This document shows, piece by piece, positions 16,531 through 16,840 of a stretch of 41,280 nt of DNA; positions within the stretch are counted from its first letter, which is position 1; every line of letters begins with the position of its first letter. The notes under the pieces were generated by a model. It made no database searches. It saw nothing but the letters and a program-made list of their open reading frames with translations, and was not told the origin of the DNA. A program made the translations under genes and the position numbers. Origin of the DNA: a virus (lineage: Duplodnaviria > Heunggongvirae > Uroviricota > Caudoviricetes); the IMG/VR virus record IMGVR_UViG_2718218131_000003, positions 1 through 41,280 of that record, one strand, 5' to 3'.

Positions 16531-16606
16531 GGCCCTTTAGCTCAGTGGTGAGAGCGAGCGACTCATAATCGCCAGGTCGCTGGTTCAAATCCAGCAAGGG
16601 CCACCA
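16531..16606 (+). tRNA. tRNA with CAU anticodon, ileX-like (tRNA-Ile2, lysidine type) or Met
   Basis: 76 nt, acceptor stem GGCCCTT/AAGGGCC, anticodon loop CTCATAA, GTTCAAATC T-loop, 3' CCA; closely resembles E. coli ileX as recalled. Confidence 0.8.
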
Positions 16607-16607
16607 A

Positions 16608-16684
16608 CCGCCACTAGCTCATCAGGAAAGAGCGTCAACCCTTTAAGTTGAGTGTGCGAGGTTCGAGTCCCCGGTGGCGGTCCA
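16608..16684 (+). tRNA. tRNA, atypical; anticodon loop CCTTTAA (UUU/Lys if canonical), isotype uncertain
   Basis: 77 nt; acceptor CCGCCAC/GTGGCGG, D-stem GCTC/GAGC, anticodon stem TCAAC/GTTGA, T-loop TTCGAGT, 3' CCA; position 33 is C rather than the near-universal U and C1-G72 starts the acceptor stem. Confidence 0.5.
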
Positions 16685-16686
16685 GT

Positions 16687-16762
16687 GCCGACTTAGCTCA
16701 GTAGGTAGAGCAACTGACTTGTAATCAGTAGGTCACCAGTTCGATTCCGGTAGTCGGCACCA
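16687..16762 (+). tRNA. tRNA-Thr (anticodon UGU), thrU-like
   Basis: 76 nt; acceptor GCCGACT/AGTCGGC, anticodon loop CTTGTAA, 3' CCA; matches E. coli thrU as recalled. Confidence 0.8.
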
Positions 16763-16765
16763 TAT

Positions 16766-16840
16766 GCGGGCATCGTATAATGGCTATTACCTCAGCCTTC
16801 CAAGCTGATGATGCGGGTTCGATTCCCGCTGCCCGCTCCA
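16766..16840 (+). tRNA. tRNA-Gly (anticodon UCC), glyT-like
   Basis: 75 nt; acceptor GCGGGCA/TGCCCGC, anticodon loop CTTCCAA, T-loop TTCGATT, 3' CCA; matches E. coli glyT as recalled. Confidence 0.8.

Follow-up and report, generated by a model that had tools for sequence, protein, structure and literature searches.

A mosaic four-tRNA cassette in the late region of a lambdoid Escherichia coli prophage, with an arginine-tRNA derivative that may act as a nuclease-insensitive lysine tRNA

The stretch analyzed here, referred to below as the window, comprises 41,280 nt of IMG/VR virus record IMGVR_UViG_2718218131_000003 (positions 1 to 41,280) and is a lambda-like Escherichia coli prophage. Its late region holds a tandem array of tRNA genes between a DNA methyltransferase gene and the lysis genes. 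Exactly four tRNA genes were called by ARAGORN in the whole window, and the Rfam tRNA model (RF00005, gathering threshold 29 bits) matched all four over their full length, with E-values of 2e-6 to 2e-14, far beyond chance (Table 1). A four-tRNA array at 16531-16840 had been proposed in an earlier note made from the sequence alone, and ARAGORN placed it exactly there. From one gene to the next the gap is 1, 2 and then 3 nt, and the CCA end is encoded in each; with spacers of 1-3 nt, the four tRNAs would be made as one precursor. There is no doubt that the array is a tRNA cassette, mosaic and mobile, carried by a lambdoid prophage in its late region.

Table 1. Positions of the tRNA genes and of other features of the window, with the evidence for each.
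Feature	Position	Strand	Type or sequence	Evidence or remark
Integrase gene	1-1131			left end of the window
DicF small RNA	4438-4489	-		76.7 bits
sok antitoxin RNA	11644-11819	+	with hok-type toxin locus	120 bits
Late antiterminator (Q-like) gene	14218-14772	+		Pfam DUF1133 (3e-101), Phage_antitermQ
DNA methyltransferase gene	15433-16481	+	two overlapping frames, 15433-16383 and 16284-16481	
Promoter-like element	16493-16521	+	TTGCAG, 17 nt, TATTAT; ends 9 nt before tRNA 1	shared homology edge
tRNA 1	16531-16606	+	Met/Ile2 (CAT), tRNA-Ile2 type, anticodon CAU	ARAGORN; Rfam 72.5 bits
tRNA 2	16608-16684	+	Lys (TTT), argN-derived, anticodon UUU	ARAGORN; Rfam 44.4 bits
tRNA 3	16687-16762	+	Thr (TGT), exact host thrU copy, tRNA-Thr(UGU)	ARAGORN; Rfam 73.8 bits
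tRNA 4	16766-16840	+	Gly (TCC), exact host glyT copy, tRNA-Gly(UCC)	ARAGORN; Rfam 64.9 bits
Structured non-coding stretch	16841-17030	+	190 nt, three long hairpins	minimum free energy
Intrinsic terminator	17049-17075	+	GCCCGCTTTTGCGGGC then TTTTCTTTT	conserved in relatives; 59 nt before the holin gene
Holin gene	17134-17349	+	first gene of the lysis cassette	counterpart annotated as class II holin in the closest genomes

Two of the four genes match host genes base for base. tRNA 3 is identical to K-12 thrU (76/76) and tRNA 4 to K-12 glyT (75/75), as the earlier note had proposed together with the absence of tyrU from between them; all host sequences invoked there proved accurate by comparison with K-12. 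In K-12 the two genes belong to the thrU-tyrU-glyT-thrT (tufB) operon, where tyrU and a 116-nt spacer separate them. The window pair has the same bases and gene order, but tyrU, the 116-nt spacer and thrT are missing and the pair is located in a prophage. Host identity ends at the mature tRNA ends. The spacer between tRNAs 3 and 4 reads TAT; in K-12, thrU is followed by T and glyT is preceded by AT, which together give the same three bases, so a clean deletion of tyrU explains the junction. Unlike the host operon, the pair is mobile: in several phage lineages it recurs as a module whose TAT spacer is fixed. Among other lambdoid phages, the tRNA genes directly after Q are Thr-Gly alone in some and Asn(GUU)-Thr-Gly in others, and since TAT is always kept in those pairs, a single origin of the Thr-Gly module is indicated. 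Prophage glyT copies (IMG/VR loci such as L008, L009 and L011; phages 683R6, SerU-LTIIb and JLK-2012) recurrently showed C6-G67 replaced by U6-A67, a compensatory change that points to continued selection for structure on the captured Gly tRNA. tRNA 1, which had been described as ileX-like, shares 68/76 bases with K-12 ileX and is identical (76/76) to ileZ of the Stx2a_F349 phage and of the O157 PPompW prophage; it is annotated as tRNA-Ile by NCBI in relatives.

tRNA 2 is the atypical member of the array. It has the 7/4/5/5-bp cloverleaf, 7-nt anticodon loop, G18G19 and T54-Psi55-C56 of a bacterial elongator tRNA, and its loop reads C32-C33-U34-U35-U36-A37-A38. The elongator U33 is replaced by C33 in the window and in every UUU-anticodon copy found; further unusual features are C1-G72, U73, C16, A51.C63 and U15/G48. 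The earlier note had read C1-G72, C33 and the loop CCUUUAA correctly. Its canonical cloverleaf held in that Rfam and ARAGORN both recognized a tRNA, and had to be qualified for the T-stem mismatch A51.C63 and the discriminator U73. Of the identities it had offered, the Lys type agrees with the ARAGORN call and with NCBI, which labels the identical gene tRNA-Lys, not pseudogene, in the closest genomes; no support was found for a suppressor-like tRNA, the loop being 7 nt long with a plain UUU anticodon. Overall, its interpretation of the array was supported.

A73 is a Lys identity element in E. coli tRNA-Lys; tRNA 2 has the anticodon U34-U35-U36 of that tRNA and U73 in place of A73. Compared with E. 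coli tRNA-Lys(UUU) (lysT/V/W), the anticodon, A37 and A38 are the same (loop CUUUUAA in the host, CCUUUAA in tRNA 2), whereas the host tRNA has G1-C72, A73 and U33 and tRNA 2 has C1-G72, U73, C33, another anticodon stem and the T-stem mismatch. The two bodies are unrelated.

Over its full length tRNA 2 aligns with Stx-phage argN (anticodon UCG, U33), with 12 differences in 77 nt. In the stems G30-C40 became A30-U40 (a two-sided change), U27.G43 became U27-A43, U7.G66 became C7-G66 and G3.U70 became G3-C70, and all four affected pairs are kept or improved relative to argN. The anticodon loop changed from CUUCGAA to CCUUUAA. The alignment identifies tRNA 2 as an anticodon-switched member of the argN family, Arg UCG having apparently become Lys UUU. 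In the PPompW prophage of O157:H7 (locus L003, 3109-3184), ileZ, a Lys-type tRNA 2 and argO are found; in this tRNA 2 the loop is of Lys type, the 3' acceptor strand is of argN type and 1 nt of the D stem is deleted. The arrangement would represent a step in evolution from argN to the tRNA 2 of the window, or else a recombinant between them. The D arm, anticodon stem and T arm of the argN/tRNA 2 scaffold are shared with tRNA-Gly(UCC) genes that unrelated phages from metagenomes carry (loci L132 and L170, and further IMG/VR contigs), and the acceptor features U73, C2-G71 and G3-C70 of tRNA 2 are of Gly type, which hints at a succession of anticodon switches on this scaffold from Gly to Arg to Lys. 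Three degenerate scans of IMG/VR gave no anticodon other than UCG or UUU on the argN scaffold; only unrelated phage tRNA-Gly(UCC) genes and similar were matched besides. Among GTDB species representatives, a stringent pattern matched only E. coli and Shigella.

The cassette has a sharp upstream boundary. The window, the Stx2a phage and the O157 PPompW prophage become homologous exactly at the TTGCAG/TTGCAA hexamer of the promoter-like element, and the genes upstream are unrelated in all three. The conserved upstream element spans 38 nt, and the TTATTAT of the promoter-like element is invariant. Consensus matches in the window were 3/6 for the -35 and 5/6 for the -10 hexamer; because the -35 hexamer reaches only 3/6, the element is not called by a consensus scan. 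It looks like a sigma-70 promoter moving with the cassette, and its presence suggests that a lysogen could express the tRNAs without help from the late promoter. Another promoter-like match, inside thrU/glyT (16754-16781), was rejected as chance, its TATAAT being the glyT D-arm.

The same site, after the late antiterminator and before the stx or lysis genes, is occupied in Stx phages of the 933W type by the ileZ-argN-argO cluster. That cluster shares with the window array the 38-nt upstream element, an identical ileZ in first position, the scaffold of the second tRNA and the 1-nt spacing. Its second tRNA, however, is Arg (UCG, U33) and its third argO (UCU), whereas in the window Lys (UUU, C33) is followed by the thrU and glyT copies. 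The IMG/VR loci containing the tRNA 2 family carried the arrays Met-Lys-Thr-Gly (94 loci), Met-Lys-Arg(UCU) (13 loci) and Met-Arg(UCG)-Arg(UCU) (7 loci), and truncated or partial arrays at a few loci. Of 5,426 complete E. coli genomes, 600 contain the whole array (371-nt region, coverage of at least 80%), and the tRNA region also occurs in a few isolated temperate phages. A related prophage (locus L124, NZ_CP148507.1), 97.8% identical over 91% of window 8000-32000, has no tRNA cassette: around 20960-21080, corresponding to window 16482-17122, the methylase is followed by a different terminator and then directly by the holin, and identity flanking the site is 84% (methylase) to 95% (lysis genes). 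Its Q gene is also a different one, and it has additional toxin-antitoxin genes (RelE/ParE, HicAB). A phage 'moron', an independent insert with promoter and terminator of its own, would show such presence and absence between similar phages; for the window cassette the indel and the terminator are seen, and the promoter is a candidate one.

Downstream of the tRNAs, the structured stretch had a minimum free energy of -87.4 kcal/mol, where shuffled sequences gave -61.6 +/- 4.2 (z = -6.2). Phage HK639 has a homologue of 76% identity between its Q and lysis genes, in which the hairpins are kept via 8 compensatory pairs. The stretch had no Rfam match and was found, unannotated, in 525 of the 5,426 E. 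coli genomes. It may belong to the tRNA transcript as a 3' trailer, or be a small RNA in its own right. It might be one of the 'Pas' small RNAs of prophages, which are reported next to holin genes.

The array combines the ileZ of Stx phages, an argN derivative with UUU and the thrU-glyT captured from the host tufB operon, with tyrU cleanly deleted. Transcription would start at the promoter-like element and be joined, after induction, by read-through of the late transcript. By established E. coli tRNA processing, RNase P would then cut at each 5' end and exonucleolytic 3' trimming would release the tRNAs. tRNAs 1, 3 and 4 would add decoding for AUA, ACA/ACG and GGA/GGG, and tRNA 2 would be a lysine tRNA that is spared when nucleases of the host or of a rival element cut host tRNA-Lys(UUU) and so disable phage translation. 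This overall explanation, a late-region phage tRNA cassette in which codon supply is combined with nuclease survival through tRNA 2, is put forward tentatively and falls short of being probable.

The nuclease part of it was assessed against published target requirements. The tRNA-Lys(UUU) of the host is a favoured target of several E. coli and phage-satellite nucleases. It is the main target of PrrC, which cuts 3' of U33 (between positions 33 and 34), and a bacterial Schlafen nuclease also cuts it. PARIS AriB recognizes U36-A-A-U-C|A41 of tRNA-Lys; cutting is abolished by U39A and impaired by A41C and U16C, and T5 escapes AriB via a resistant tRNA-Lys with C16, A39 and C41 (PMC12409363). When the T5 gene was read directly, C16, A39 and C41 were confirmed, with U33 kept. 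The reported AriB targets are Asn(GUU), Thr(UGU) and Lys(UUU). P2-OLD, the classic lambda block in P2 lysogens, removes the anticodon arm at C-N-G motifs (positions 28-30 and 40-42) and prefers tRNA-ThrU, also cutting tRNA-Lys; the tRNA-Thr(UGU) of lambdoid phage 21 protects against it, and over-expressed host tRNA-ThrU gives little or no protection (PMC12445682). An altered CNG motif and a shortened anticodon stem are the reported properties of OLD resistance.

Host lysV, T5 tRNA-Lys and tRNA 2 were compared, in that order, at position 16 (U, C, C), positions 28-30 (UUG, UGG, CAA), position 33 (U, U, C), positions 39-41 (UCA, ACC, GUU) and position 73 (A, A, U). tRNA 2 differs from host tRNA-Lys at every position reported as needed by AriB (U16, U39, C40 and A41), has no CNG motif on either strand of the anticodon stem (28-30 CAA, 40-42 UUG), and its C33 borders the bond cut by PrrC. 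Judged from these positions, tRNA 2 should be a poor AriB and OLD substrate with an altered PrrC junction. It shares with T5 tRNA-Lys the UUU anticodon, C16, a non-U39 and a non-A41, and has U40 in addition; C33 and U73 are absent from T5 tRNA-Lys. Resistance and rescue have been shown experimentally for the T5 and phage 21 tRNAs, whereas the likeness of tRNA 2 is one of sequence. The phage that carries it is lambdoid, the phage type that P2-OLD blocks. A nuclease-escape role for tRNA 2 is plausible, and that it is a nuclease-insensitive tRNA-Lys is possible, though with some doubt. More doubtful is the full counter-defence reading, in which an Arg(UCG) scaffold was turned Lys-reading and replaces host tRNA-Lys(UUU) cut by AriB-, P2-OLD-, PrrC- or Schlafen-type nucleases, with C33 as a selected escape feature. 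If so selected, C33 could alter the PrrC cleavage junction or prevent t6A37. C33 remains the least explained feature of tRNA 2, and nothing was found in the literature on position 33 and PrrC. A tRNA-cutting nuclease encoded in the same prophage was considered as the target and rejected, Pfam scans of 20 early/middle proteins having given standard lambdoid functions only (PADLOC was not run).

The Thr member of the cassette bears on the same question. tRNA 3, being identical to host thrU, has neither an altered CNG motif nor a shortened anticodon stem, whereas the tRNA-Thr of phage 21 and the allele of phage JLK-2012 have altered anticodon stems; the copy in the window is the nuclease-sensitive host form, which would only add dosage. 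At 30 IMG/VR loci, the main differences of thrU-derived alleles from host thrU are G42U/U43C or G42C/U43C; copies of this kind recur at loci L203-L231, L054 and L008. Both versions do away with the CNG motif at 40-42 and leave an anticodon stem of 3 bp, and several of the alleles differ from host thrU solely at positions 42 and 43. They were found in Asn(GUU)-Thr-Gly, Thr-Gly and Met-Arg(UCU)-Thr-Gly arrays, including that of phage JLK-2012 (locus L126, 1415-1648). Lambdoid arrays at the same site elsewhere carry Asn(GUU) and Thr(UGU), the remaining AriB targets. The alleles match the published recipe for OLD resistance, and the Thr module appears to be under nuclease-driven selection elsewhere, with a 'naive' allele in the window.

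Several observations weigh against an escape role for tRNA 2, or for the cassette as found here. argN already has C16 and G39, with C40 and U41, so G39/U40/U41 and C16 are largely inherited from the argN scaffold and may be incidental rather than selected. The resistant tRNA-Lys of T5 keeps U33, and C33 is thus not required for AriB escape. Since over-expressed host tRNA-ThrU gave little or no protection against P2-OLD, the host-identical thrU of the window would not protect either. tRNA 2 has U73 rather than the A73 of E. coli tRNA-Lys. t6A37 matters for Lys decoding. E. coli t6A enzymes do not modify a U33C tRNA, in the one tRNA tested (PMC8887486), and by analogy C33 should block t6A37 in tRNA 2 and cost function.

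Population data add to these points. A sample of 119 loci was used for tRNA 2 alleles, with diversity computed on the 61 loci that have homologous flanks. Nucleotide diversity was 0.0216 for tRNA 2; the other tRNAs had 0.006-0.009, and the non-coding hairpins next to them 0.013. About 1/4 of the sampled copies carry impaired-looking alleles (the 1-nt D-stem deletion of the PPompW type, U8C with two more changes, and one internal deletion), and the U8C allele, a common one with C4U, U8C and C11U, is left unannotated by the NCBI pipeline. Covariation was statistically weak, with one double change that was reached by 136/500 shuffles.

The same data favour the first alternative, that tRNA 2 is a decaying argN relic, inactive in translation and carried between the useful tRNAs of one transcript. 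The highest diversity of the four tRNAs, above that of the neighbouring hairpins, the impaired or unannotated common alleles, the lowest tRNA model score of the array, the non-canonical C33, A51.C63, U73 and U15/G48, and a C33 expected to block t6A37 by the E. coli enzymes would all be expected of such a relic. Decay is harder to reconcile with the anticodon loop: C33-UUU-A37-A38 is unchanged across all UUU-anticodon alleles while position 32 and the 5' half vary, and IMG/VR had no non-C33 copy of tRNA 2 vs. more than 110 C33 copies. The four stem changes relative to argN keep or improve their pairs, one of them by two-sided compensation, and within the tRNA 2 family pairing is kept in 9 of about 12 stem substitutions. 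The cloverleaf of tRNA 2 costs 2.7 kcal/mol over the minimum-free-energy fold, much as that of host lysV does (2.2 kcal/mol), and the intact allele is in the majority (66/119 sampled loci). The minimum-free-energy fold was also tried as a test of functionality and set aside as uninformative, the genuine thrU and ileZ likewise having no cloverleaf as minimum. On balance the relic status is doubtful in its own right, and it and the nuclease-escape role of tRNA 2 were judged about equally likely.

Codon usage bears on the second alternative, codon supply alone, by which all four tRNAs top up decoding and tRNA 2 is an ordinary extra tRNA-Lys unrelated to nucleases. Window genes were compared with 42 K-12 genes (50 kb). 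ATA (2.9 times), ACA (2.6 times), GGA (2.1 times) and GGG (1.6 times) were significantly enriched in the window, and tRNAs 1, 3 and 4 probably have a codon-supply role. Its extension to tRNA 2 can draw on the significant enrichment of AAG (1.47 times), on the share of Lys codons in the late genes (4.7%) and on the classical ileZ-argN-argO cluster, which reads rare codons at the same site. The main Lys codon AAA, however, was not enriched (1.13 times, p = 0.07, not significant), so the codon counts fit a Lys(UUU) tRNA poorly. The most over-represented rare codons, AGA (7 times), AGG (10.6 times) and CGG (3.4 times), all significant, are those served by argO and argN, which are lost or converted in the window array. 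E. coli moreover has several identical tRNA-Lys(UUU) genes (lysV was itself seen), and a poorly modified C33 tRNA would be an inefficient addition to them. Codon supply as the whole explanation is therefore unlikely.

Least probable by far is a recoding or suppressor tRNA, with a shifted loop turn (e.g., UUA reading the UAA stop) or with non-Lys charging, by Arg via A20 or by Gly via U73/C2-G71/G3-C70. A20 is an ArgRS element, and U73, C2-G71 and G3-C70 are tRNA-Gly elements; tRNA 2 keeps the former and has the latter, its anticodon, D and T arms resemble phage tRNA-Gly(UCC) genes, and C33 removes the usual U-turn nucleotide. Against this, the loop has the standard 7 nt, and tRNA 2 has neither the C35 needed by ArgRS nor the C35 + C36 needed by GlyRS. 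We know of no precedent for a register shift in a 7-nt anticodon loop, eukaryotic C33 initiator tRNAs read their normal codon, and nothing in the prophage genes was noticed that would signal recoding, such as an in-frame stop codon. In a recent preprint, tRNA matches near prophage lysis genes were taken as integration-site remnants; the window tRNAs are clearly phage-borne genes and not such remnants, as the array lies mid-prophage in the late region and the integrase at the left end of the window.

The gene order around the cassette is that of a lambdoid prophage. The integrase is followed by an exonuclease VIII-like gene, a CI-type repressor, replication genes, DUF968, RusA and Q; after Q come the frameshifted DNA methylase, the tRNAs, holin, lysozyme, terminase and lambda-like head and tail genes. 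The methyltransferase gene just upstream of the tRNAs is also annotated as frameshifted in the closest genome. DicF and sok/hok were also detected (Table 1) and are typical of Qin/Rac-like lambdoid prophages.

As a kind of element the cassette is already known: lambdoid late-region tRNA clusters have been recognized from the Stx phages onward, and hundreds of genomes have the genes annotated. In the literature, no paper was found on the argN-to-Lys anticodon switch with C33 in every sampled UUU copy, on a match of tRNA 2 substitutions to nuclease determinants, or on the exact thrU-glyT capture with derived alleles elsewhere. Should tRNA 2 prove a relic, what is left is a prophage tRNA cluster of the ordinary kind that is already annotated.

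Phage tRNAs have recently been recognized as counter-measures to tRNA-cutting immunity, and the tested examples are nearly all from large lytic phages such as T5, plus the lambdoid Thr tRNA of phage 21. tRNA 2 is a clear natural case of a change in amino-acid specificity through the anticodon on a conserved scaffold, and a rare C33 elongator tRNA in E. coli, where C33 is rejected by the t6A enzymes. With the exact thrU-glyT copy, the capture of host tRNAs by a phage is documented, and the derived alleles show a possible sequel. If the nuclease-escape reading is true, the counter-defence idea would extend to temperate lambdoid prophages, with the cassette in about 11% of complete E. coli genomes, and about 1 in 9 sequenced E. 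coli strains would carry an unrecognized anti-defence tRNA. The thrU alleles would then record steps of an arms race, from the host-identical form found here to the G42U/U43C forms found elsewhere.

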